Shown in pieces: positions 6,340-60,299 of a DNA stretch of 64,000 nt. The position numbers and the translations under genes were made by a program. The DNA comes from a phage. Each line of letters begins with the position of its first letter. Position 1 is the first letter of the stretch. The notes beneath the pieces were generated by a model. It did not search any database. It saw only the letters and a program-made list of their open reading frames with translations, and had not been told where the DNA came from. The stretch lies in the sequence record PZ445489.1; one strand, 5' to 3'.

Positions 6340-6426
6340 TATACTCTCCTTCTCTAACTAAGACTACTATTATAACTCATTCGAGGGCGGATGTCAACAA
6401 TATTTTACTATAAAGTTCTGTAACAT

Positions 6427-6480
6427 GATCTGAGTCAAAAAATTTTATTTGCCAATCTCTATTAAAAATTGTATAATCAC
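6427..6480 (+). promoter_or_regulatory. T5-type early promoter
   Basis: TTGCCA 6439-6444, 17-nt spacer, TATAAT 6462-6467. Confidence 0.6.
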
Positions 6481-6576
6481 GCACTCGTGCACGCGATATA
6501 AAATGATTATCTAGTATCACACATCTCACGTTAAAAGCAAGCAAATTTTTTATTTAAATGCAATATCATAGGCTTA

Positions 6577-7445: not shown

Positions 7446-7667
7446 ATGGGAAACGTCGTTCATCTGAGCCGTAAAACTAAAATACATCGTACTTCACTGA
7501 GTGCTGCTAATATGATTACACGTAAGGAAGGGGAAGAAAGTCCTAAGACAACCCTAGCGTGGAAAATTGTAACCTCAAACCCAAATAAACCATTCAATTA
7601 TAACGAGCTGAGCACCTCCATAGATATTCTATTAAAAGAAGTAGCTAGAGCTAAAGTAATTGAATAA
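7446..7667 (+). CDS. hypothetical protein (73 aa)
   Basis: ATG overlaps phoH stop (TAATATG); track start 7377 lies inside phoH. Confidence 0.45.
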   Translation: MGNVVHLSRKTKIHRTSLSAANMITRKEGEESPKTTLAWKIVTSNPNKPFNYNELSTSIDILLKEVARAKVIE

Positions 7668-48655: not shown

Positions 48656-49386
48656 TGAAAGATTTGGCAGTAAAATTTAAGAATATTCTAGCCCTCGCTA
48701 AGGGGGCTGATCATCGCTGTTTCTCTGATCTAACTGCTCAAGAGAAACATGCAGTAATGTTTGTTTGTGAGATGTTCCCAGCTAGGTGGGAAGGTGGTAA
48801 GATTAAGTATGATAACAAAGCTGCAAAAGCTGACCTTGCTTACTCTTATGTTGATATGAATAAACTTCTCAAGTCTTTAGATCCAACTGCTAAAGGTCAC
48901 ATGGGAAACTATATTCATGTTATTATTGATGAACCTCTCCCAGCGTATAGAGAAACATCCGCTAGAGAAGCGTTAGAAGCGTATCCTGAGCAACTTCTTA
49001 TCCCACCTAAGAAATGTAAGTTCGATCATCTTCCAGCATTAGCTTTTGAAACTAGCATTACGTTTGAAGATATTTATAGAACGATTGGAGCTGTAGTAGC
49101 ACGGATTGCAGTGGCACATCATCGTGATATAGAACTAACTACAGCGGAAGATTACATTCTATATGCTATCCACGATGAAAAGGACTCCTTCAAACGTTTA
49201 ATGGATGCGCTAGGATTAGGTAGTCTCACTGCACTTGTGCTTAACCAGGCTCCTAGAACTAAGCGTTATGCAAAAGGATCTATTACTCTTGAAGAAACAG
49301 GATCTACATCTTCATTCCTTGCTACGTATATTTATCTAGCATCTAAAGGAATCTATCTAAAGGCTAGAAAGAATGTCACTATATAA
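48655..49386 (+). CDS. hypothetical protein (243 aa)
   Basis: ORF. Confidence 0.5.
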   Translation: MKDLAVKFKNILALAKGADHRCFSDLTAQEKHAVMFVCEMFPARWEGGKIKYDNKAAKADLAYSYVDMNKLLKSLDPTAKGHMGNYIHVIIDEPLPAYRETSAREALEAYPEQLLIPPKKCKFDHLPALAFETSITFEDIYRTIGAVVARIAVAHHRDIELTTAEDYILYAIHDEKDSFKRLMDALGLGSLTALVLNQAPRTKRYAKGSITLEETGSTSSFLATYIYLASKGIYLKARKNVTI

Positions 49387-49729
49387 AGTATATATTCTTG
49401 CAAATAGGGATCTGACGAAGATCCCTAAGAGAACAAAGATCGGTATTAGTATGAATCCACATAATAGGATTCAAACACTAAACTTAGATAAGATAGTTTA
49501 TCGTGGTTTTGACGATTTATACGTGTATGGGATCTATGAAACCCATAATCCTAGAGATCTAGAAGCCGCTGCACATATCTACTTTAAGAAATACCGCTGT
49601 AATTTAAAGGGATTCGAAGGATGCACAGAGTTCTTTGATATTCACCCACAACTTGCAGAACGATTCCTATTAAATACAGGAGCCAAGAAGATTTACGACC
49701 CCAATATCAATCTCGAAGGAGATGTATAA
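49373..49729 (+). CDS. GIY-YIG-like nuclease domain protein (118 aa)
   Basis: YKVYIL...KIGISMNPHNRIQTL resembles the GIY-(N10)-YIG-..R..N pattern; weak. Confidence 0.4.
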   Translation: MSLYKVYILANRDLTKIPKRTKIGISMNPHNRIQTLNLDKIVYRGFDDLYVYGIYETHNPRDLEAAAHIYFKKYRCNLKGFEGCTEFFDIHPQLAERFLLNTGAKKIYDPNINLEGDV

Positions 49730-50224: not shown

Positions 50225-50825
50225 GTCGGATTTGCACACTGCATTTCTAGAAATTTATGGTCGGATTTGCACAAACGCCTAAGTTTTTAGGGACACATAA
50301 TCTCCTGAAAATAGCAGCATTATTTCGGGCCGAAGGCCCATGATTGCCTGAGTTTTTAGAGCCACAGAAATTTTCACTTGTCAAGCTATTTTGCCCCGTT
50401 TAGCTAATAAAATTTTACTTTTTCTGCACCTATCTCAAATTAACCCAAATTATCTCACATCTTCCCCAAAATCCCCGCAAATCAGGTGCTCCGCACCAAA
50501 CATGCGCCCCATCCTTCTAGCCTCCCAAATTTCTCTCACTCTCTCATCTTCTCCTCAAACCCACACAATCACACACCCTCCAATCGAAGTCACAAAAATC
50601 TTGTCGGATTCGCACAAATAAACCCATGTCGGATTTGCACATATTCTAGCTAATTCCACAGGATTGATGCGCAGCATCGGATTGCTGGAGTTTTTGGGAA
50701 AATTCATTGTCGGATTTGCACACTATAAAAATTTTTCGGGTCGGATTTGCACACTACCAAAAATTGTCGGATTCGCACATACATGCCCGCACGTAACACC
50801 CGTGGAGCAATGTCGGATTTGCACA
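50225..50825 (+). repeat. eight direct copies of 14-bp box GTCGGATT(T/C)GCACA
   Basis: Copies at 50225, 50260, 50603, 50628, 50709, 50740, 50766, 50812, all same orientation. Confidence 0.8.
50510..50585 (+). other. G-free C/T/A tract on + strand (about 75 nt)
   Basis: cctcccaaatttctctcactctctcatcttctcctcaaacccacacaatcacacaccctc has no G. Confidence 0.7.
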
Positions 50826-50871
50826 AAAGCGCAGGGCAATTGCCCTGCTAGCCTGAATGCGAATGATAATA

Positions 50872-51000
50872 AGAATCATTATCATTTAAAAAGCGAAATG
50901 AGAACTATTCAAAAAGTGAAATGATTCTCATTTAGGAAAGGAAATGATTATCGGTTAGAAAGTGAAATGCGAATGAGAATAATTCTCATTTAAGAATGGA
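50872..51000. promoter_or_regulatory. cluster of palindromic AATGAGAAT-N-ATTCTCATT-type operator-like boxes
   Basis: Palindromes at 50872-50896, 50928-50943, 50982-51000 plus GAAATGA half-site repeats. Confidence 0.55.
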
Positions 51001-51023
51001 AGTGAGAAACACTGTTATTTAAG

Positions 51024-51105
51024 TTATCCACAGACTTATTAACAGCACGATTTGACTTGACAGAATCCTAGCCATTTTGAGGCGTTATTAACAGACTTAT
51101 CCACA
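51024..51105 (+). promoter_or_regulatory. two DnaA-box-like TTATCCACA sites
   Basis: TTATCCACA at 51024-51032 and 51097-51105. Confidence 0.5.
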
Positions 51106-51129
51106 GCTTATCCTACTGTATAAATATAC
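51094..51129. repeat. 36-bp inverted repeat, left copy (partner 54637-54672)
   Basis: gacttatccacagcttatcctactgtataaatatac; 34 of 36 match reverse complement of right copy. Confidence 0.7.
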
Positions 51130-51327
51130 AGTATTCCTACGTAGTGAATAATTCTAATATACCGCTAAAACGTCCTAGATCGCATTCTAACGCGTTTAAT
51201 TTTGGTGGGGATACTAAAACAAGGGCAAAATTGGAGGAGGCTTAAAAATTAGTTAGCCCGCTAACGATCACACAAGTCGACACGTAACACCCTAATCATT
51301 AGCAGGCTAACCATCGCGGGCGCGCTC

Positions 51328-51348
51328 AAATGAGAATGATTCTCATTT
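51328..51348. promoter_or_regulatory. palindromic operator-like box AAATGAGAATGATTCTCATTT
   Basis: 10-bp arms, same family as the 50.9-kb boxes; just beyond 3' end of leftward operon. Confidence 0.5.
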
Positions 51349-51389
51349 GAGAATTGGGGGCACTCCCTGGTAGTTGCGCCCCGTTATTA

Positions 51390-51584
51390 TTAATCCGGTA
51401 ATTGATGCGTGATCTTCTCCTCTTCCCCATAGGAATCGACCAAATGCTGATAATAACCATCGGCATCATAAATAACGCTATCATATTCCCCCCGCTCGAC
51501 CGCTTGCCGGTTTTCCGGCGTATCGGGCACGTAAAAAACATCAACCATTGTACTGATTTTGGTTACAACAATTTTATTGCTCAT
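51390..51584 (-). CDS. hypothetical pre-early protein (64 aa)
   Basis: ORF, last gene of leftward operon; ATGA overlap with upstream gene. Confidence 0.45.
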   Translation of the reverse strand: MSNKIVVTKISTMVDVFYVPDTPENRQAVERGEYDSVIYDADGYYQHLVDSYGEEEKITHQLPD

Positions 51585-51925
51585 TGCGCCACCTTTCGAA
51601 ACGCTGTTTCAATACTATCCGCAGTGGATTGAATATACGCGCCTTTCATTACTAGGCGCTCGGTGCATACCTTGCGGAAAATATTAATAAAATCATCTTC
51701 ATTTTCTGCAATTAATGCTTCACCCATAACCTGAACGTCACAAGATGCAAAGGTCAAAAATTGAAACGCTAGTTCACGGGCAACGACCGCATTAATCTTA
51801 TAATGCGCTTTGCCCTCATAAATATTAATAACGCCCTTATAAGCTGGTGAAAGCTGGTTTAAATAGTTTGCTAACAATGCCGGGCGGCAATTAGCAACAA
51901 AGCGGTTGCCCTCATAAATAACCAT
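51581..51925 (-). CDS. hypothetical pre-early protein (114 aa)
   Basis: ATG after GGGAGG RBS (track start 51940 is upstream in-frame). Confidence 0.5.
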   Translation of the reverse strand: MVIYEGNRFVANCRPALLANYLNQLSPAYKGVINIYEGKAHYKINAVVARELAFQFLTFASCDVQVMGEALIAENEDDFINIFRKVCTERLVMKGAYIQSTADSIETAFRKVAQ

Positions 51926-51926
51926 T

Positions 51927-52052
51927 TTATAACCTCCCAATCAGATAGCCAGATAAAAGCATAAAAACCCCCAGTAAAAGGGGATCATTCTTAAATAGGG
52001 TGGCGGTAAAACCGCCAACCATTGCAAGGATAATAATAATAACGCTTTTCAT
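51927..52052 (-). CDS. small hydrophobic membrane peptide (41 aa)
   Basis: Single TM helix; stop overlaps next start; below ORF-track cutoff. Confidence 0.3.
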   Translation of the reverse strand: MKSVIIIILAMVGGFTATLFKNDPLLLGVFMLLSGYLIGRL

Positions 52053-52261
52053 AGTACCCCACGAAACGCAGCGTAAAAGGTGGCAAAGTGTTTAACCGTT
52101 TCAGCGATCACGTTGCCGCGCTTGTCAAATTTCTTTTCTGTAACACGAAAGGCATTCTTATTACGTGCTACATATTCGATTTTACAATCTTCACGCTCGA
52201 ACGTGTTAACATCCACCAGCTTAAAGCCTTTCGAACGGGCAAGGGAAACATTGCGGATCAT
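52049..52261 (-). CDS. hypothetical pre-early protein (70 aa)
   Basis: ATG after AAGGAG RBS. Confidence 0.5.
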   Translation of the reverse strand: MIRNVSLARSKGFKLVDVNTFEREDCKIEYVARNKNAFRVTEKKFDKRGNVIAETVKHFATFYAAFRGVL

Positions 52262-52263
52262 TT

Positions 52264-52419
52264 TTATTCTCCTTTACTAGTCATGCAGCCCAGCAGATAA
52301 GAAAATGCAGCGATACCTGCGCCAATAATAACCGCGTGAACGCCGAAAGCTATTGCAAACAACGATAAAATAGCGCCCAAGATACCCGCTAAAATAGCTC
52401 GAAAAATAACCATTTTCAT
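52264..52419 (-). CDS. small hydrophobic membrane peptide (51 aa)
   Basis: Single TM helix; below ORF-track cutoff. Confidence 0.3.
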   Translation of the reverse strand: MKMVIFRAILAGILGAILSLFAIAFGVHAVIIGAGIAAFSYLLGCMTSKGE

Positions 52420-52460
52420 TCCCCCTAGTTAGTGGGGCGAAAATAACGCCCCGTTATTAA

Positions 52461-52769
52461 TTACATTAAAACAATTTTAGCCGCTTGTTTTTTGGTGCAA
52501 TGTTCTGCTTTCAGGGTATCCAGCAAAAAGCCCGCCGTTTGCTGATCGATTTGATCATTATCATAAAGCGCCTGAATGGTAGTGTATGTTTTAGCAATGC
52601 CATATTCTTGCACCATTTCGTGAATAATAACGCGGTTAGATACCCAGCCTTGAGCGGTGAACAGATGACTAGCAGAAGAATAAGCAACCATTTTAAGCCT
52701 CCAATTTTTGGGAAAATTTTCAACCGTCCTCAAACGGTGTAAAGGCATTATAACAAAAAAGGCCACCAT
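52461..52769 (-). CDS. hypothetical pre-early protein (102 aa)
   Basis: ORF. Confidence 0.5.
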   Translation of the reverse strand: MVAFFVIMPLHRLRTVENFPKNWRLKMVAYSSASHLFTAQGWVSNRVIIHEMVQEYGIAKTYTTIQALYDNDQIDQQTAGFLLDTLKAEHCTKKQAAKIVLM

Positions 52770-52796
52770 AAAAGGCGACCTTTACAAAACTTTACA

Positions 52797-53291
52797 TTAG
52801 ACTACTTGTAGGGATTCAATATTGAAACATCGTTTCAATTCGTCATGCAAAACAGCATATTCATCCCATCGGGTACTATCAGGAATATAAACAAGCTGTT
52901 TTAATCGATTTGCGTATATTACCGCTTTGTTACCAACTATCTCGACGCCACCATATTTAATAATTAATCTCATGACGGAATTAATAGGATCGCCGCCGTT
53001 TACATATGTGCCGGATTTACTTAATTGATAATGATAAAGGCTTGCATATACGTTTTCATTTTCATACCATTCGCCAGTTTCTTCGTCTTCGTAACCATCG
53101 CTACCAAAACGAGAAGCATTATCAATAGCCATTTCCTGAGCGAAAGCGTCCAGATTACAGCCAGCTGGAACAAAATGTTCCTCCGTCCAACCTTCCCCGC
53201 AATAGCCAGTATGACAATCGACCAAAATGATCATATCATGTTTTGCCATGCTCACTTCTCCCAGTGAGAAGCCATATTTTTCATCAGCCAT
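52797..53291 (-). CDS. hypothetical pre-early protein (164 aa)
   Basis: ORF with GGAGG RBS. Confidence 0.55.
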   Translation of the reverse strand: MADEKYGFSLGEVSMAKHDMIILVDCHTGYCGEGWTEEHFVPAGCNLDAFAQEMAIDNASRFGSDGYEDEETGEWYENENVYASLYHYQLSKSGTYVNGGDPINSVMRLIIKYGGVEIVGNKAVIYANRLKQLVYIPDSTRWDEYAVLHDELKRCFNIESLQVV

Positions 53292-53356
53292 TTATTAGCC
53301 TCCTATTAATTAACAAGGGAATACTAAAGCGGGGTAACAATCCCCGCTTAGTATTA

Positions 53357-54367
53357 TTACTCGCTTTCGGTGTTAGTAGTAAAAGTAGAAATATCAATAC
53401 CTTTTACCATTTCATCAATCATTTCAGCGATGTTAAAACTTTGCACCATTTCTAACATAGCCGCTTCCATAGCCGCGCCTGCTACCGCTTTCGCTTTCTG
53501 GTTACTCGGGGCATACTGGTCAACCGCTACACTCAGCAGGTTGGCAATCACTACCCGACCAATCGGTGTATCAATATAACCTTTGATCATAAACGGTGCT
53601 TTTTTAGCCGCTACTTTCGTGATTTGAGTCAATGCAATTTTACCTGCTTCCAGTTTTGCAGCATTTACAACAGCGGATTTATTAGCGGCAACAATATTAG
53701 CGATCTTGGTCATGGTGTTTTTTCCTTTGTTTTCAGTAGTTTGAATTTTAACGCTTTGAGTGTTAGAATTTACAGCATGGTTTTCTACGCTGTCAATAAT
53801 CTGATCTTCATCTTTCCAGAAAGAAAAACCAGCGCTTTCTATATCCCCATCATAAATATATGGGTATAGCTCCCGTGGTAACAAAAAATTACCGTCGCCA
53901 TCAAAAGCCATTATACCGGTATATTGAGATCCGTCGTTATCCGGCTTATGCCATCCAGCCGGTAAATACTTCCAGATAACATCTAAAAATCCCTCAATAC
54001 TAGAAAGTCCGTTTATCAGATCAAGCCCAATAAGCTCAAAACCATTTATATTAAATGATTGACGGCCTGAATTGCTATGATACGCAACAATATTATTACC
54101 CTGTGCAACAATAAAATCGGTATCCGGCCCCGCTCCCCTGCCAGTAAAGATATGGCAATCACGGTTATATAAAACTAGCGTTGCCCCGTACTTATATAAT
54201 GGCAAAAAACCTTCCATATCATAGGCGTCATAGTCATCAAAAAAGTTTTGATGAATAGTTTCAGCCTTGTTAATAAAATGTTTAATGCTGGTTGACTTGC
54301 TACCGTCCAGCAGGTTACGCAGCGCACCTTTTAAGACGGTAGCATTATCAGGTTTATACAGCCTCAT
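53357..54367 (-). CDS. hypothetical pre-early protein (336 aa)
   Basis: First and largest gene of leftward operon; RBS GGAGG. Confidence 0.55.
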   Translation of the reverse strand: MRLYKPDNATVLKGALRNLLDGSKSTSIKHFINKAETIHQNFFDDYDAYDMEGFLPLYKYGATLVLYNRDCHIFTGRGAGPDTDFIVAQGNNIVAYHSNSGRQSFNINGFELIGLDLINGLSSIEGFLDVIWKYLPAGWHKPDNDGSQYTGIMAFDGDGNFLLPRELYPYIYDGDIESAGFSFWKDEDQIIDSVENHAVNSNTQSVKIQTTENKGKNTMTKIANIVAANKSAVVNAAKLEAGKIALTQITKVAAKKAPFMIKGYIDTPIGRVVIANLLSVAVDQYAPSNQKAKAVAGAAMEAAMLEMVQSFNIAEMIDEMVKGIDISTFTTNTESE

Positions 54368-54636
54368 TTGTTCGGCCTCCCTCGTTAATCGGTGAGTGAA
54401 TGATATAGATATTTTCTTTCTAGGGGCAAATATTATTTTACCTTTTTATTTTCCTTGCCTAGCGCCTAGTTTTATGCTAACCGCGCAGCGGTGCAATAAA
54501 GAGCAAAACACGGCGAAGCCCCCAGGGCGACGGGTGAAGGCTTTACTTTAATATTACCCCACCGCATTTAGCTCGTTAGAAAGCGTTTTAGGCCGCTTAA
54601 AATTGATTGCAGTTGTTAACACTACCTTTTTACCTT

Positions 54637-54672
54637 GTATATTTATACAGTAGGATAACATGTGGATAAGTC
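54637..54672. repeat. 36-bp inverted repeat, right copy (partner 51094-51129)
   Basis: gtatatttatacagtaggataacatgtggataagtc. Confidence 0.7.
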
Positions 54673-54742
54673 TGTGGATAAGCCCTTATATCGCCGCCTA
54701 TTGTGTCAAATCATTTTGTGCTGTGGATAACGTTGTGGATAA
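54661..54742 (-). promoter_or_regulatory. cluster of four DnaA-box-like sites
   Basis: TGTGGATAA on + strand at 54661, 54673, 54722, 54734 (TTATCCACA on minus). Confidence 0.55.
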
Positions 54743-55025
54743 CTTAAATGATAGTGGTTCTCACTTAGGCCGATAGTTTCTTATAGTTATTATTTCTATT
54801 GGTTACGATTTCTTATAATTATTATTTCTCATTAATTTATATGTATATTATATATCATGAAATAGTTAGTTGGCTAATGAGATTTTCCGTGATTAATAGT
54901 CTGCTAATAATTTAAGCCGTTACAATCCACCAGCACGATTATCATCCTAGCAATTATAAGCCTGCTATTCTCCCAATACACACTAACAAACAAAAGTCAA
55001 TTAATTTATTTCATAAAATAAGTAG

Positions 55026-55058
55026 TTATCCACTGGAAAATAAAAGTCAAGTGGATAA
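55026..55058. promoter_or_regulatory. inverted pair of DnaA-box-like sites
   Basis: agttatccact and agtggataact, 11-bp arms 14 nt apart. Confidence 0.5.
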
Positions 55059-55459
55059 CTAGGAAAATTTCATTTTTGCTTTTTGGGGATAAGTTATCAA
55101 CAAGGCTAGAATGCGCCTAAAACGCCCTAGAACGCGATGAAAGTTTTAGCCATGCCATTGCATTGCCTACCCTCGTTTATCGCTGCCACGAGCTTTTTAA
55201 GTTTTGTCAATACCCCCAAAGCAAATATAGATGAAAAAATTACTTGCCAACCTGCTGGGTTTTATGGTATTCGCGCGCCCGTTTCTTTTAATTTTAGTGC
55301 GGCGCGCCCAGGTCGCCGCACGCCGTCCGGTTAATCGTGTCTTTACGTTTCTTTACAAAAATAAGGTTGCGCCATTTTTGGTATTTGCTATTATTTACCA
55401 CGTAGGGCGGCAATGACGAACTACACGGCGGGAAGTTTACCGCCGCGCTCTTTAAAAAT

Positions 55460-55483
55460 TGGGTACATCTTAAAGCCTATCGG
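55460..55483. repeat. 24-bp perfect inverted repeat, left arm
   Basis: tgggtacatcttaaagcctatcgg; exact reverse complement at 55729-55752. Confidence 0.8.
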
Positions 55484-55516
55484 CGGTAAACTTATTCATT
55501 ATAAGGAATCGACGAT

Positions 55517-55720
55517 ATGAAACAAACTTTATTGATCACTGGTAAACCTAGCAAGGCACTGGACAGCAAAACAAAAAATTTGTTGACAGTAGCGCAAAGA
55601 TCGGTAAAATATCGATTTAAGCAGTACAAGAAAGGCCGCCAGCAAGGTCTGGAAATGATCTGGCGTAATATTATGATTGACTTAAAAGAAAATCATAAAA
55701 AACTGCAAAAAATTGTTTGA
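55517..55720 (+). CDS. small basic protein (67 aa) bracketed by 24-bp inverted repeat
   Basis: ATG with weak purine-rich RBS (GGAATCGACGAT upstream); Lys/Arg-rich. Confidence 0.45.
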   Translation: MKQTLLITGKPSKALDSKTKNLLTVAQRSVKYRFKQYKKGRQQGLEMIWRNIMIDLKENHKKLQKIV

Positions 55721-55728
55721 CACCCTAG

Positions 55729-55752
55729 CCGATAGGCTTTAAGATGTACCCA
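55729..55752. repeat. 24-bp perfect inverted repeat, right arm
   Basis: ccgataggctttaagatgtaccca. Confidence 0.8.
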
Positions 55753-55947
55753 GTTCGATAAGAGCGATAACTTGATAAAATTTGACGGTCGGCACTTACC
55801 ATAATGTGCCCCGCCCCCTAACTGGGATATAGCGGCCTGCGTGGAGTTCTTTAAATTGATTATATTGGCGAGCGGATTGTTGCTTATTACCTGCTAGAAA
55901 GTAGCAGGTAATGCGGAACAATCCCCTAAATAACTGGAGTTTATACT

Positions 55948-56199
55948 ATGCAAAACGTTATCATTACGCCGAAAGTTGGTCAATCCGTTTTTATTCCTTT
56001 CGTTACTAAAACGGATGAATTAACCGGAAAGGCCGAACGCATTAAAGGCGCGGCGCTTATGCCGTTCGATACAATCGACGCGGTATACGCTGAAACGGAA
56101 CGGAGTAACAACGGCAAAACCGTTTTTAGCGTTCGCGTTAAATCCGGCGACGTTGTAAAGGTTGTCCAGCGTAACGAAAAATGGGAAGCTGTAGCGTAA
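55948..56199 (+). CDS. hypothetical pre-early protein (83 aa)
   Basis: ATG after GGAG RBS. Confidence 0.5.
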   Translation: MQNVIITPKVGQSVFIPFVTKTDELTGKAERIKGAALMPFDTIDAVYAETERSNNGKTVFSVRVKSGDVVKVVQRNEKWEAVA

Positions 56200-56300
56200 T
56201 ATAGTGTTAACTTTATATTCCTCTGAAATATGGGGAATATAATGATTAACATTAAGTTAATCATTAAATCCCTTAAATTAAACTAACAGGAGCTACAATC

Positions 56301-56708
56301 ATGACTAACGTTAAAACCGCAAAATTCTCATGGAATGAAGAAAACACCCAAAAAGCTGTTACCATGTACCAGCAGTTAATTAATGAAAACGGTTTAGATT
56401 TCGCAAATAGCGACGGCCTGAAAGAGATTGCAAAAGCAGTTGGCGCGGCCTCCCCCGTGTCCGTTCGCTCAAAATTGACCAGCGCGAAAGCGTATCAGAA
56501 AAGCGATAAGCCGCGCAAAGTTGGCGGCGGTAGCTCAATCCGCAAAGCGCATTATGTGCGCGTTATTGCAAAACACGCTATCGATTCCGGCATTATCAAA
56601 GACGCCGACGATCTGGCATCACTGGAAAGCGCAAAACTGGAAACGCTGGACGCCGTGGCGCAACTGTTAGGCGTTGCCGATGAAGTGAAACAAGCCGCAG
56701 GCGAATAA
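56301..56708 (+). CDS. A2: pre-early protein, A2-like by size and position
   Basis: 135 aa, AGGAG RBS, directly upstream of A1-like gene; assignment by synteny and size only. Confidence 0.4.
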   Translation: MTNVKTAKFSWNEENTQKAVTMYQQLINENGLDFANSDGLKEIAKAVGAASPVSVRSKLTSAKAYQKSDKPRKVGGGSSIRKAHYVRVIAKHAIDSGIIKDADDLASLESAKLETLDAVAQLLGVADEVKQAAGE

Positions 56709-56765
56709 ATTTAATTAGTGGGGAATATTCCCCACTATAATTTCCCTTTGACTGGAGTTATTAAA

Positions 56766-56963
56766 ATGATCTTTTACCCTACTGAATCCTTAATTCTAGG
56801 CTTATTTATTATGGCGGCCTCATTACTATTCGCTTATTTTCAAAATGATTTAGATTCATATTATTTTAAACGTAAATCTAAGTTAGCAAAGCGTTTAGGT
56901 CTGATTTGTTTTATTGCCGCCGTTGTTTGTGGTGTTAGTTCTAGCCTTATGCCTTTAAATTAA
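56766..56963 (+). CDS. small membrane protein (65 aa)
   Basis: ATG after GGAG RBS; two hydrophobic segments (track start 56718 is upstream). Confidence 0.45.
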   Translation: MIFYPTESLILGLFIMAASLLFAYFQNDLDSYYFKRKSKLAKRLGLICFIAAVVCGVSSSLMPLN

Positions 56964-57060
56964 TGTTGCAAATTATAACGCCTCAAATAATAGGCGTTAT
57001 ATTTGGCAATATTTGCCAATAACAAACGTTTTTTAATCCCTTTAATGGAGTTTTATTACT

Positions 57061-58725
57061 ATGATTATTTCCGCAGAAAAACAAACCGTTATCCTGAAAA
57101 TGGCCGCTGACTTTAATTTCTACGGTAAACGTCTGCGCGCTACTAAACTGGAGGTCTGCGACGATATATCAAAAGCGGTTTACGATACTCCAAAACATTC
57201 CACCGCTATTTGTGATTGGCTGGAAGCAAATAAACCAGCGAAACCGAAAGCGGCGAAAGTAGCAAAAGCCATTAAAAACGATGAGCGCCCAGAAGCGGCG
57301 GGGATTGTTTCTAGCACGGTGGAAAGCTGGGAAGTAAAACAAGGCAAACGCTTTATTATTACATCGATTCAGAATAATACGTTCCCGCATAAAAACTTTT
57401 TAGCCTCACTGGAGCAATTTGCTAAATATATCGGCGCTGATTTGCTGGTTAGCAAGTATATTTATAATAAAAACGGATTCCAAAATGGCGAGGGCGCGGA
57501 TGGAATAAAATATGATTCCGCGTTCGATAAATATATTTGCAGCAAAAACGTGTTTTTGAATAATCGCCGTTTTGCTTTCATGGCTGAAATTAATGTTTTG
57601 CCCACCGCAGATTATCCGCTTTCTGGATTCGCTGAAACTGCAACCGCGCTTAATCTGGAAGGTCTGGCAATTGGTCACGCTAAAATCACCGCCGAAAGCG
57701 TGCCAGCTTTAAAAGGTGAAGTAGTGCGCCGCATGTATTCAACTGGCACGGCAACGCTTAAAAATTACATCCAGCAGAAAGCAGGACAGAAAGCGGAAGC
57801 ACTGCATAACTTCGGTGCGCTGATTGTTGAGTTCGACGAAGACGGTGAGTTTTTTGTTCGCCAGCTTGAAACAATGGACGAAAGCGGGGTGTTTTATGAT
57901 CTGAATGTTTGCGCTACTCCCGCCGGATGCTATGAAACATCGGGGCATGTTTTAGGCTTACAATACGGCGATATTCACGCAGAAAAATTAGATGAAGAGT
58001 GCGCCGCCGCGTCATGGGCTGGCGAAAATAGCTTGCTTGATATTCTTAAACCAAAATATCAGTTTATCCATGACGTTCACGACTTTACATCACGCAACCA
58101 TCACAACCGCGCTTCGGGTGTATTCCTAGCAAAACAATACGCCGCCGGACGTGATAAAGTTCTGGATGATCTTATCGATACCGGTCGCGTGCTGGAATCA
58201 ATGGAACGTGATTTCTCGCAAACAATCATTGTTGAATCTAATCACGATCTGGCGCTATCCCGTTGGCTGGATGATCGTAATGCTAACATTAAAGACGACC
58301 CCGCAAACGCGGAACTATATCACCGCCTTAATGCCGCGATTTATGGCGCTATTGCAGAAAAAGACGATACTTTCAACGTGCTAGATTATGCGCTGCGTAA
58401 GGTTGCAGGTTGCGAGTTTAACGCCATTTTCCTAACGACTGACCAATCATTTAAAATTGCAGGCATTGAATGCGGCGTACACGGTCACAATGGCATAAAC
58501 GGCAGCCGTGGCAATCCGAAACAGTTTAAGAAATTGGGCAAATTAAACACGGGGCACACTCATACCGCCAGCATTTACGGCGGGGTATATACCGCTGGCG
58601 TGGCTGGTAGTCTGGACATGGGTTACAACGTTGGCGCGTCAAGCTGGACACAAACGCATTTAATTACCTATGCAAATGGTCAGCGTACTTTGATCGACTT
58701 TAAGAACGGTAAATTTTTTGCGTAA
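57061..58725 (+). CDS. A1: pre-early protein A1-like with calcineurin-like phosphoesterase motifs
   Basis: 554 aa; GDIHAE, ESNHD and GHTHTAS resemble Mre11/SbcD-type metallophosphoesterase motifs; size matches T5 A1 as I recall it. Confidence 0.55.
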   Translation: MIISAEKQTVILKMAADFNFYGKRLRATKLEVCDDISKAVYDTPKHSTAICDWLEANKPAKPKAAKVAKAIKNDERPEAAGIVSSTVESWEVKQGKRFIITSIQNNTFPHKNFLASLEQFAKYIGADLLVSKYIYNKNGFQNGEGADGIKYDSAFDKYICSKNVFLNNRRFAFMAEINVLPTADYPLSGFAETATALNLEGLAIGHAKITAESVPALKGEVVRRMYSTGTATLKNYIQQKAGQKAEALHNFGALIVEFDEDGEFFVRQLETMDESGVFYDLNVCATPAGCYETSGHVLGLQYGDIHAEKLDEECAAASWAGENSLLDILKPKYQFIHDVHDFTSRNHHNRASGVFLAKQYAAGRDKVLDDLIDTGRVLESMERDFSQTIIVESNHDLALSRWLDDRNANIKDDPANAELYHRLNAAIYGAIAEKDDTFNVLDYALRKVAGCEFNAIFLTTDQSFKIAGIECGVHGHNGINGSRGNPKQFKKLGKLNTGHTHTASIYGGVYTAGVAGSLDMGYNVGASSWTQTHLITYANGQRTLIDFKNGKFFA

Positions 58726-58781
58726 ATAATTAATACCCTAGCGGCTTGAAATATAGCCGCTATTATAGGAGCTAAATTAGA

Positions 58782-59039
58782 ATGAAAGTTACATTACCCA
58801 AAACGCTGGACGAAAAAGCATTTATTTCACCGGATGAAATGGAATCCGATAAAGTTTACAGCTTCGGGCCTATCCTAGCCGCCAAAACTAATACGGATGG
58901 GATTATTACGGTCGATTATCGTGATAATGATATTATCCCTTTTGACGATGATGACGCTTTTTATGAGTGGCTAAGCGATAATAATTTACCCGTAAATGGT
59001 GAATTAACGCCGTATCAAATGCAGATTATTATCAAGTAA
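58782..59039 (+). CDS. hypothetical pre-early protein (85 aa)
   Basis: ATG after AGGAG RBS. Confidence 0.5.
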   Translation: MKVTLPKTLDEKAFISPDEMESDKVYSFGPILAAKTNTDGIITVDYRDNDIIPFDDDDAFYEWLSDNNLPVNGELTPYQMQIIIK

Positions 59040-59079
59040 ATTAAATACCCTTTATTAAATTAATTGGAGTTTTATAAAT

Positions 59080-59472
59080 ATGAAAAAGCAAAATATCCCA
59101 TTCGATCGCGCTCAATCTTCCATTGTTCTGGTTTATTCTAATGGTGAACGTTACCACGTCGAGGCGGGGCACGTTATTGATGAGCTATTGGACTTTAACG
59201 ACGCTTTGCAGGTTACTACCTTTGCCTATACGCAAGGTAAACTAACTAGCCATATTAAAGCAAAAGGTGTTTATGTTGACACTGTGAAACAAGAAACGAT
59301 TATCATCGACGCCGTAAAATCCGGCCTAGCCTTTGCAGTTGTCGCGCCTTGCCCCGCTTGCCTCGATGATCAATTGACCAGCGCAAAGGTATATACCTGC
59401 GCGGGCATTCGTTCCGGTGTATCTGGTGAAGATATTAGTTTTATTGCTGATGCGTTGGCGTATGGTCTTTAA
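59080..59472 (+). CDS. hypothetical pre-early protein (130 aa)
   Basis: ATG after GGAG RBS. Confidence 0.5.
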   Translation: MKKQNIPFDRAQSSIVLVYSNGERYHVEAGHVIDELLDFNDALQVTTFAYTQGKLTSHIKAKGVYVDTVKQETIIIDAVKSGLAFAVVAPCPACLDDQLTSAKVYTCAGIRSGVSGEDISFIADALAYGL

Positions 59473-59552
59473 TAGTTAATTTATTATTACCCGCTTATAA
59501 ATAGCGGGTAATGCTGAATTAATCTAATCCCTTAAATGGAGAACGTAACAAA

Positions 59553-60287
59553 ATGAATCAAGTTAAAACGAATATTACCCGTAATTTCCCGCATATTTCC
59601 CGCGTCATGATTTGGGATCTGGACGGAACTATCATTAATTCTTTCCATCGCGTAGCGCCTTGCTTTGATAGCGAGGGCAATTTAGATTTAAATAAGTATA
59701 AAAATGAAGCATGTAAACATGATTTAATAATGCAAGATACACTATTGCCGCTTGTTACATATATGCGCCAGTGCATGAATGATGTTAGTACGTTAAACAT
59801 TATTTGCACCGCTCGACTGATGAGCAAGTCGGACTATTATTATTTGCGCAAACAAGGATTGCGAGGGCGTGGGGATAGTAATATCCGTGTATTTTCCCGC
59901 GATACACTACACAAATATTTTGAGGCTGATAAAGTTAGCGAGATATACCACAGCAAAGACGCTATTTATAAAAGCCATTACTTTGAGTTATTTAAACAAT
60001 TATATCCGAACGCTGATTTCACGATGATTGATGATCATAAAGGCGTGCTATCAGCGGCGGCGTCATACGGATTTAAAACGCTGGACGCGCAAGCCGTTAA
60101 CGATATTCTATCGATTGGGGTTACATTGATAGGTGAAACCTTTATCGATGAATCTCTTGAGGATGATAATGATTATCAGTTCCTAGCCGACCGCCTGCAA
60201 TTATGTTGGGAAGGTATGACCGAAGAAGAACGCGCAGAATATAGTTGCAGCCCGCAACAATATATTGAGAAATTAAAAGTTGCGTAA
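59553..60287 (+). CDS. dmp: HAD-family 5'-deoxyribonucleotidase-like protein (Dmp-like)
   Basis: 244 aa; HAD motif I IWDLDGTIIN; size and position match T5 dmp as I recall it. Confidence 0.55.
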   Translation: MNQVKTNITRNFPHISRVMIWDLDGTIINSFHRVAPCFDSEGNLDLNKYKNEACKHDLIMQDTLLPLVTYMRQCMNDVSTLNIICTARLMSKSDYYYLRKQGLRGRGDSNIRVFSRDTLHKYFEADKVSEIYHSKDAIYKSHYFELFKQLYPNADFTMIDDHKGVLSAAASYGFKTLDAQAVNDILSIGVTLIGETFIDESLEDDNDYQFLADRLQLCWEGMTEEERAEYSCSPQQYIEKLKVA

Positions 60288-60299
60288 TAATTAAAGTTG

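Follow-up and report, generated by a model that had tools for sequence, protein, structure and literature searches.

An eight-gene pre-early block of a T5-like phage as the very probable counterpart of T5 genes 011-017, with a candidate gene nested in the 011 orthologue

In phage T5, the genes T5.011-T5.017 occupy the slot of the left terminal repeat (NC_005859, 6495-9157) that extends from the IRC/IRD inverted repeats to the injection-stop signal. The pre-early genes of BF23 are arranged in two units of opposite orientation (PMC10644984), and for the Tequintavirus Bas33 pre-early transcripts as well as ten pre-early proteins have been detected (PMC13250531). Among the T5 products, 008, 011, and 015 were found to be toxic and 015 was described as an Ung-dependent AP-site nickase by biochemical and genetic assays of host Ung binding, nicking of abasic sites, and loss of toxicity in an ung deletion host (PMC8201957), with 013 not being found toxic by the same authors, Mahata et al. 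A further study reported toxicity of 011, 013, and 015 when expressed alone, expression of 013 leading to a lysis-like loss of cell integrity (bioRxiv 10.64898/2026.04.02.716235); disturbance of nucleoid organisation by the toxic 011 is documented as well (bioRxiv 10.64898/2026.04.02.716235; PMC8201957). T5 without hegG-017, and also without dmp, 002, 003, 005, and 007, is viable on a laboratory host (bioRxiv 10.64898/2026.04.02.716235), on which deletion of the whole block has no separate phenotype. The gene numbers of both publications (PMC8201957 and bioRxiv 10.64898/2026.04.02.716235) appear to follow the NC_005859 numbering.

We analyzed a stretch of phage DNA of 64,000 nucleotides (PZ445489.1, hereafter the window) and compared its block of leftward genes at 51390-54367 with these systems. 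With high confidence, the block represents that pre-early transcription unit of a T5-like phage (Tequintavirus) which lies proximal to the injection stop, and it is the counterpart of T5 genes 011-017. Six of its eight ORFs (O1 to O8) are orthologous to annotated genes of the T5 left terminal repeat, with the gene order kept and protein identities of 64.5-100%, T5.013 being the most diverged of the shared orthologues (64.5%). Tequintavirus genomes are 92-97% identical to the window across the stretch of the block. Homology to the annotated T5 repeat and to that of phage Elw (9,935 bp) places the block inside a terminal repeat of ~9.9 kb (window ~50360-60295), which bears out its earlier assignment to first-step-transfer DNA. 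The orientation relative to A2-A1-dmp is the same as in T5, the unit being divergent from the hdi-A2-A1-dmp unit, and the T5 promoter and terminator are conserved in the window. The eight genes are flanked by injection-stop-type repeats and by 131-nt inverted repeats with paired DnaA boxes, whose distal arm (Davison's IRD'-spacer-IRC', 51000-51130) and proximal arm (IRC-spacer-IRD, 54636-54766) bracket the entire block (bioRxiv 10.1101/866236). Directly 3' of O8, two hairpins or palindromes on the minus strand (51325-51382) mark where the unit ends and the injection-stop repeat region begins. In contrast to T5, the accessory genes O2 (164 aa) and O6 (41 aa) are added between 011 and 012 and between 014 and 015, respectively, whereas T5.016 and the neighbouring HNH gene hegG are missing.

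Exactly eight minus-strand ORFs tile 51390-54367, as called in the first-pass annotation. They are real genes and not chance ORFs, since each of them has a Shine-Dalgarno motif and a PHROG family match (E<=1e-25), and in every ORF shared with T5 the codon changes are more often synonymous than nonsynonymous. The series starts with O1 (53357-54367; 336 aa), the T5.011 orthologue (89.6% identity) carrying Pfam DUF7566, and continues with the acidic O2 (52797-53291; 164 aa; pI 4.5; phrog_6741; absent from T5), O3 (52461-52691; 76 aa; T5.012 orthologue, 89.5%), and O4 (52264-52419; 51 aa, or 49 if translated from M3; T5.013 orthologue, 64.5%). These are followed by the basic O5 (52049-52261; 70 aa; pI 10), with the same protein sequence as its orthologue T5.014, the hydrophobic peptide O6 (51927-52052; 41 aa; phrog_19184; absent from T5), O7 (51581-51925; 114 aa; T5.015 orthologue, 93%), and the acidic O8 (51390-51584; 64 aa; pI 4.4; T5.017 orthologue, 90.6%). 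Two alternative starts were rejected: the mechanically assigned start that would give O3 102 aa falls within the stem of a terminator hairpin, with the PHROG profile beginning at M27, and for O7 the ATG start and not the TTG start (119 aa) fits T5.015 and the PHROG coordinates. Though not found in T5, O2 is present in 345 phage records, and its family shows invariant Cys/Gly motifs as well as a Zn-ribbon-like insert in some homologues. O6 occurs in 160 phage records including BF23 and is lacking in T5, oldekolle, and Elw. When the eight proteins were scanned against Pfam, NCBIfam, and PADLOC, the sole match was DUF7566 for O1. PDB sequence searches (O1, O2, O5, and O7) and profile searches (O2 and the O1 C-domain) returned nothing useful except a HIRAN structure, a match that arose via fused relatives in the profile.

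Upstream of O1, a promoter scan together with T5 homology predicts a host sigma-70-type promoter on the minus strand (54400-54429; TTGCCC, 18 nt, TATCAT) with an A/T-rich stretch upstream. Alignment of the 103 nt preceding O1 with T5 6392-6494, the region containing the annotated promoter 6411-6489, gives 95/107 identical positions, and the promoter upstream of 011 has been characterised experimentally in T5 (Annor et al. 2026). Gaps of 65 nt (O1 to O2), 105 nt (O2 to O3), and 41 nt (O3 to O4) each host a stable minus-strand hairpin. The one 3' of O1 (53327-53349; dG -18.9 kcal/mol) has no U-run, the one 3' of O2 (52758-52783) is terminator-like with a U-run and has its T5 homologue in the terminator annotated at 7534-7559, and the third, read from the sequence between O3 and O4, is a small GC hairpin (52434-52452; GGGGCG/CGCCCC). 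The junctions from O4 to O8 range from -4 to +2 nt, two ATGA overlaps among them. Translational coupling, previously assumed for all eight genes, can thus be retained for O4-O8 and not for O1, O2, and O3 with their hairpin-bearing gaps, and because of the terminator-like hairpin with U-run after O2, the presumed single operon of eight may consist of perhaps two or three nested transcripts. The higher GC content brought forward earlier (40.5% vs 38.3% in the adjacent early region) is marginal and a weak argument, ranking at the 72nd percentile of stretches of the same size in the window. Upon infection, the terminal repeat would be the first DNA to enter the cell, and host sigma-70 RNA polymerase would initiate in front of O1 at the conserved promoter and transcribe towards the injection-stop repeats. 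Expression would probably be graded by the hairpins after O1, O2, and O3, with O4-O8 being translated as one tightly packed set; we infer the early timing as well as this gradation.

The products of the block would act as accessory host-takeover effectors and not as essential functions. A takeover role had already been proposed on the basis of position, and it fits the published toxicity of T5 011, 013, and 015 expressed alone. The designation of all eight genes as uncharacterised is outdated, as a biochemical mechanism is known for the T5.015 orthologue and phenotypes have been described for 011 and 013. Following the T5 data, O1 (011) would perturb the nucleoid, O4 (013) would be a small membrane-damaging protein, and O7 (015) would bind the host uracil-DNA glycosylase and nick the resulting abasic sites. 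Our analysis establishes the position and orthology of the genes, the homology of promoter and terminator, and the constraint on the coding sequences; toxicity, the Ung mechanism, and dispensability come from T5 experiments on orthologues, which assign an activity to O1, O4, and O7 of the eight, and we infer that the orthologues act alike in this phage. O4 is a hydrophobic membrane protein with two segments (GRAVY 1.58) and hydrophobic windows over most of its length. It is the counterpart of the small two-TM membrane toxin T5.013, its putative lytic activity being an extrapolation because the identity is only 64.5%. Since the literature already covers this block and where it lies, as well as three of the products, the finding is real and mostly ordinary.

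The nickase requires a closer look, considering that the name belonging to T5.015 is attached to the neighbouring gene in public annotation. RefSeq gives it to YP_006842.1 (T5.014) and many of its orthologues, and phrog_4227 bears the same name, which would make the 70-aa O5 and not O7 the Ung-dependent enzyme. The basic, lysine-rich composition of O5 and its extreme constraint (19 synonymous and 0 nonsynonymous codon differences to T5.014) would suit binding to a conserved host enzyme and to DNA. However, this assignment is unlikely in the light of the numbering used in the experimental work. Mahata et al. covered 13 unknown genes and skipped 001, 004, 006, and 010, which are dmp, A1, A2, and hegG in NC_005859; this fits the numbering of that record, by which their T5.015 would be the 114-aa protein. 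Annor et al. likewise followed NC_005859, with 013 being the two-TM protein, and reproduced the toxicity of 015, while 014 was not toxic. Moreover, in UniProt it is the cluster of the 114-aa protein, and not the 70-aa one, that is named “DNA-(apurinic or apyrimidinic site) endonuclease,” and another T5 record names the 70-aa protein “ORF015,” an obvious source of an off-by-one error. O7 is 93% identical to T5.015 (Mahata et al. 2021, PMC8201957) over all 114 residues and holds the same place in the operon, and we consider it most likely to be the Ung-dependent abasic-site nickase; Pfam and PDB searches revealed no recognisable nuclease motif or solved relative for it. The RefSeq/PHROG label on the 70-aa O5/T5.014 is probably misplaced by such an off-by-one error, by which the wrong gene would have come to be called the Ung-dependent nickase in both resources. 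O5 itself, a 70-aa basic protein with zero amino-acid change between this phage and T5, is worth following up, as are O2, O3, O6, and O8.

Regarding the block as a whole, it could alternatively serve primarily as an anti-defence cassette against restriction-modification, methylation, or other immunity of the host during the time the naked first-step-transfer DNA waits in the cell, with toxicity being a side effect of over-expression. T5-like phages resist type I, II, and III restriction and avoid host methylation, the pre-early genes responsible being unidentified (PMC10644984), and the T5 genes for restriction insensitivity and methylation avoidance must lie within this repeat. The mosaic gene content among close relatives, with O2, O6, and 016 coming and going, is what arms-race loci typically show, O2 and O8 are small and strongly acidic as are DNA mimics, and T5 can do without the block on a laboratory strain poor in defences (bioRxiv 10.64898/2026.04.02.716235). 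Nevertheless, beyond DUF7566 the eight proteins lack any Pfam, NCBIfam, or PADLOC family match, with no ORF matching Ocr, ArdA, or similar anti-restriction families in these general collections, and no solved-structure relatives were found. Furthermore, no experiment ties these genes to restriction evasion, and the demonstrated activity of 015 is aimed at host DNA instead. We therefore rate a primarily anti-defensive purpose as rather unlikely. Far less probable still is a mobile or recombination cassette set by the 131-nt inverted repeats and filled largely with selfish passengers lacking a role in infection, even though the two arms enclose exactly these genes, the gene content is variable, and the distance between the arms varies widely across T5-like phages (bioRxiv 10.1101/866236). 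Such passengers are at odds with the strong purifying selection on O5 (see above) and on the O1 C-domain, which has 1 nonsynonymous change among 24. In addition, the block contains neither a transposase nor a recombinase, and the 131-nt repeats carry DnaA boxes and have been proposed to take part in the injection stop. Accessory host takeover stays our preferred interpretation of the block.

Its largest member, O1, is covered along its whole length by Pfam DUF7566 (PF24450; E 3e-113), scoring 379 bits where the gathering cut-off is 27 and aligning to positions 5-336 of the 336-position profile, and is composed of a variable, acidic N-domain (1-~190), a low-confidence linker (184-217), and a conserved helical C-domain (219-336). 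The C-terminal ~118 residues constitute the DUF7566 core common to 683 representative clusters, which in other phages is fused to HIRAN, fused to more than 50 other N-termini, or encoded as a standalone gene. According to Pfam, HIRAN is present in 22 of 146 other family members. Like O1, the other DUF7566 proteins, HIRAN-DUF7566 fusions included, are found in virulent phages; in contrast to the fusions, O1 carries an N-domain that bears no relation to HIRAN. Pfam finds no HIRAN in O1, and a divergent HIRAN was rejected on the basis of an hhalign probability of 0.1% against a cluster of 26 members presumed to be HIRAN N-domains, a presumption made without mapping them to the 22 Pfam matches. 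Judged from neighbours such as T4_Y16D, NAMPT, RNR, and PolA, other family members reside in regions that are early or devoted to DNA replication/recombination, in the genomes of large virulent phages. Structure prediction, which the first-pass annotation had suggested as one option for every ORF, was run for O1: the AF2 model of the 118-aa C-domain reached a pLDDT of 84.2, whereas the full-length model, built from a shallow alignment of 22 sequences, was poor (pLDDT 54.5) and was kept out of the fold search. A BFVD search returned only uncharacterised family members. A weak LAMTOR2/roadblock match (E 0.8) was taken as chance, and the label “DNA N-6-adenine methyltransferase” on the homologue in phage JLBYU40 was dismissed, being without domain support.

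The domain boundary of O1 coincides with a candidate nested gene (53357-53713, minus strand), in which translation from an in-frame ATG (M219), separated by 9 nt from an upstream AAAGGA, would yield the 118-aa C-domain alone. An SD-like motif is found 5-10 nt upstream of the boundary Met in 9/9 lineages, compared with 4.9% of codon positions; a tenth lineage, PR1, has GAGGA 10 nt upstream, and an eleventh, L012, is without the boundary Met. A DNA-level element or recent recombination as the reason for the near-invariance of the C-domain was rejected because 23 of the 24 codon differences to T5 are synonymous. The conserved internal SD and ATG, possibly together with a promoter, suggest that the C-module is also made separately, a gene-within-a-gene layout that would be previously unreported. 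Tentatively, O1 can be read as a two-in-one gene with an autonomous C-module and an internal start, the core being an effector or assembly module combined with differing N-terminal heads that target host DNA or the nucleoid; we see this as a possible arrangement and not yet as the favored one. It would explain why attempts to clone wild-type T5 011 failed and a synonymously recoded copy was cloned. The toxic 011 would then combine a head that appears exchangeable with a conserved tail, common to many virulent phages and probably expressed on its own as well, an architecture offering a concrete handle on a protein said by the T5 community to resist functional prediction.

Nested in-frame phage genes, in which a long ORF gives rise to a second C-terminal product, are exemplified by lambda C/Nu3. 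The candidate in O1 resembles this pair by its internal SD and ATG and by a putative second product corresponding to the C-terminal part. The likeness is an analogy, as the two share neither sequence nor function, and internal initiation in O1 is suggested by sequence conservation. As a lead, a candidate internal promoter was noted within O1 (53767-53796, minus strand; TTGACA, 18 nt, TAAATT). Its TTGACA is retained in 6/7 Tequintavirus and Epseptimavirus sequences compared, oldekolle having TTGGCA, and the codon preceding it varies between I, V, and L while always ending in TT.

Analysis of the minus-strand stretch at 51390-54367 confirmed the eight consecutive ORFs proposed by the first-pass annotation (O1 to O8, from the promoter-proximal to the injection-stop-proximal end), and they are genuine genes. 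After correction of two mechanical start calls, they cover 53357-54367 (O1, 336 aa), 52797-53291 (O2, 164 aa), 52461-52691 (O3, 76 aa), 52264-52419 (O4, 51 aa), 52049-52261 (O5, 70 aa), 51927-52052 (O6, 41 aa), 51581-51925 (O7, 114 aa), and 51390-51584 (O8, 64 aa). A Shine-Dalgarno (SD) motif is found upstream of all eight starts, every product matches a PHROG family (E<=1e-25), and codon comparison with T5 revealed more synonymous than nonsynonymous differences in every shared gene (O1 59/35, O3 14/8, O5 19/0, O7 26/8, O8 10/6).

Many Tequintavirus genomes match the stretch at 92-95% identity, and the block is the already described pre-early unit 011-017 of T5-type phages, here in a form carrying two accessory ORFs. 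The respective T5 counterparts (NC_005859 numbering) are T5.011 for O1 (89.6% identity), T5.012 for O3 (89.5%), T5.013 for O4 (64.5%), T5.014 for O5 (100%), T5.015 for O7 (93%), and T5.017 for O8 (90.6%). O2 has no T5 counterpart and is found in 345 phage records across Demerecviridae; O6 is present in 160 records, BF23 among them, but is missing from T5, oldekolle, and Elw. No T5.016 counterpart was found in the block, and 54780-55520 lacks the HNH endonuclease gene hegG, by which repeat regions 1 and 2 are split in T5. The presence or absence of O2, O6, T5.016, and hegG therefore shows a mosaic gene content of this slot even between near-identical phages. The block itself is already known and the finding as given adds little; the remaining interest lies in the architecture of O1, the extreme constraint on O5, and a probably misplaced nickase annotation.

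When widened to 15 kb, the comparison gave 96.8% identity with Escherichia phage vB_EcoD-Elw, whose matching DNA falls within an annotated 9,935-bp terminal repeat. By homology, the terminal repeat of the window covers ~50360-60295, with its inner end near 50360. In T5 (NC_005859), the homologous genes are found immediately upstream of the injection stop signal, inside the left terminal repeat, which carries the annotation first-step-transfer (FST) DNA. The DNA directly downstream of O8 contains several AAATGAGAAT...ATTCTCATTT palindromes (50870-51355), eight copies of the repeat GTCGGATTTGCACA / GTCGGATT(T/C)GCACA (50225-50830), and DnaA boxes; the repeats and palindromes at 50225-51355 are a non-coding region of the injection-stop type. 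A 131-nt inverted repeat (arms 51000-51130 and 54636-54766, 79% complementary) containing paired DnaA boxes (TTATCCACA) encloses O1-O8 exactly. It is the counterpart of the IRC-spacer-IRD / IRD'-spacer-IRC' pair of Davison, likewise with paired DnaA boxes, for which a role in injection stop was proposed (bioRxiv 10.1101/866236). On the other side of the block, the plus strand carries hdi, a T5.007 homologue, A2, a membrane protein, A1, and dmp. The pre-early genes of BF23 form "two inversely oriented transcriptional units" (PMC10644984), and the O1-O8 block is one of two such oppositely oriented units. Based on the repeat homology to T5 and Elw, the flanking repeats, and the divergent A2-A1 unit, the earlier placement in FST DNA was thus right.

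Between the divergent units, 54780-55520 is continuous intergenic DNA with several further DnaA-box-like sites. At the boundary of early region and repeat lies a 118-aa ORF (49373-49729, plus strand); in related phages, the genes next to it bear GIY-YIG or homing endonuclease annotations. The divergent layout is not universal in Demerecviridae, since Klebsiella phage Sugarland (NC_042093), belonging to a more distant genus, has its O1 and O2 homologues co-directional with A2-A1.

In terms of transcription, the 103 nt upstream of O1 share 95/107 identity with the T5 region holding the annotated promoter upstream of T5.011, described as experimentally characterized by Annor et al. (bioRxiv 10.64898/2026.04.02.716235). 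The block had been regarded as translationally coupled throughout. This is valid for the five genes O4 to O8, which are tightly packed with junctions of -4 to +2 nt including two ATGA overlaps, but not for the looser junctions O1-O2, O2-O3, and O3-O4, where gaps of 65, 105, and 41 nt each contain a stable hairpin. The O2-O3 hairpin includes a U-run and corresponds by homology to the T5 terminator annotated at 7534-7559; what was called one operon may in fact be a set of nested transcripts. The reported higher GC content was reproduced (40.5% versus 38.3% in the adjoining early region), yet it is not distinctive, ranking at the 72nd percentile among same-size windows.

The designation of all eight genes as uncharacterized no longer fits three of them, as T5 011, 013, and 015 have published phenotypes. 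In expression tests of 13 functionally unassigned T5 genes, Mahata et al. observed toxicity for 008, 011, and 015, and showed 015 to bind host uracil-DNA glycosylase and to nick the abasic sites made by that enzyme (PMC8201957). Annor et al. reported toxicity of 011 (uneven, disorganized nucleoids), 013 (a two-TM protein, causing lysed-looking cells), and 015 (elongated cells with condensed or guillotined nucleoids); furthermore, a viable T5 mutant retains only 009, hdi, A2, and A1, and A1 alone suffices to explain host DNA degradation (bioRxiv 10.64898/2026.04.02.716235). Pre-early transcripts and proteins were detected for Tequintavirus Bas33 (PMC13250531). Together, these expression, deletion, and detection data identify the block as a known accessory host-takeover unit. 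Most likely, early transcription by host RNAP would provide a set of accessory effectors, which would perturb the nucleoid, damage membranes, and nick DNA in an Ung-coupled manner. The block may have an anti-defence role, as suggested earlier; scans of Pfam, NCBIfam, and PADLOC matched none of the eight ORFs to a described defence or anti-defence family.

Which gene encodes the nickase is in conflict between sources. RefSeq and PHROG (phrog_4227) assign the name [quoted passage not shown] to the 70-aa T5.014, corresponding to O5. We consider this assignment improbable, as three points argue that the experiments concerned the 114-aa T5.015, to which O7 is orthologous. The 13-gene list of Mahata et al. 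skips exactly 001, 004, 006, and 010, which are dmp, A1, A2, and hegG in NC_005859 numbering; Annor et al. used the same numbering (013 being the two-TM protein) and reproduced the 015 phenotype (bioRxiv 10.64898/2026.04.02.716235); and the 114-aa protein is listed in UniProt under the name "DNA-(apurinic or apyrimidinic site) endonuclease". An off-by-one naming error has probably spread to many phage records, its likely source being another T5 record in which the 70-aa protein is named "ORF015". O5 itself encodes a basic protein (pI 10) and is under the tightest constraint of all genes in the block, with zero amino-acid changes versus T5.014 despite 19 synonymous differences.

O1 is a two-part protein. 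Among T5-like phages, its residues 219-336 (C-module, the core of Pfam DUF7566) are near-invariant and the N-terminal 190 residues variable. Only one of 24 codon differences versus T5 within codons 225-336 is nonsynonymous; the invariance reflects constraint at the protein level. Among 1.84 billion representative proteins searched, 683 relatives were found, only ~15 of which align over the full length, the others matching residues ~200-335 only. The module is always found at the extreme C-terminus, preceded by one of >50 mutually unrelated regions or by nothing; true standalone genes were also identified, preceded by in-frame stops at distances of 2 and 12 codons. DUF7566 was matched in all 146 scanned members, accompanied by a HIRAN domain in 22 and an ExoX-like C-domain in one. 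The N-domain of O1 showed no resemblance to HIRAN on comparison, and a HIRAN-like assignment was rejected. Relatives occupy early small-ORF regions and DNA replication/recombination modules of large virulent phages, e.g., between PolA/ligase and PDDEXK/AAA_24/DUF669 or beside PIF1, SNF2, RNR, and Thy1. An AlphaFold2 model of the C-module (81-sequence alignment) predicts a confident helical bundle (pLDDT 84.2, pTM 0.68), for which structure search gave no specific match in PDB or annotated viral models. The O1 homologue of Escherichia phage JLBYU40 (OK272480; 1735-2745 of the locus compared) is annotated as "putative DNA N-6-adenine methyltransferase"; the O1 family has no detectable methyltransferase domain, only DUF7566.

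At the domain boundary, O1 contains an in-frame ATG (M219, 53713-53711, minus strand) preceded by AAAGGA. An SD-like motif lies 5-10 nt before the boundary Met in nine of nine further lineages having this residue, and in PR1, the tenth, GAGGA is present at a distance of 10 nt; the Met was not found in one lineage, L012. The background frequency of the motif is 4.9% of codon positions and 3/68 other in-frame Met codons, and the peptide encoded there varies by lineage (ENKGKNT, ESGVLQ, TKEETSK, TKPREIT, NQKENN). A promoter-like TTGACA-18 nt-TAAATT is located ~55 nt upstream on the same strand. Its -35 box, TTGACA, is retained in 6/7 Tequintavirus and Epseptimavirus sequences compared (oldekolle: TTGGCA), and the preceding codon keeps a final TT although it encodes Ile, Val, or Leu. 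The internal promoter is only a lead, as conservation of the -10 box is inseparable from that of the protein and chance matches are common (24 consensus promoters found by scan versus 20 expected). From these sequence features we tentatively propose, with the balance somewhat against it, that the 118-aa C-module may also be made on its own from a gene nested in O1, which together with the promoter-like site would fall within 53357-53800. Wild-type T5 011 was not clonable while a synonymously recoded gene was (Annor et al., bioRxiv 10.64898/2026.04.02.716235), which would fit such separate production.

In a locus of the metagenome assembly GCA_040384165.1 (3119-4384 of that locus), a 127-aa "standalone" DUF7566 call represents an internal start, the ORF remaining open for 294 codons further upstream and encoding two HIRAN-like segments in this part. 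Some short DUF7566 members in databases are thus truncated calls, because gene finders choose an internal SD and ATG.
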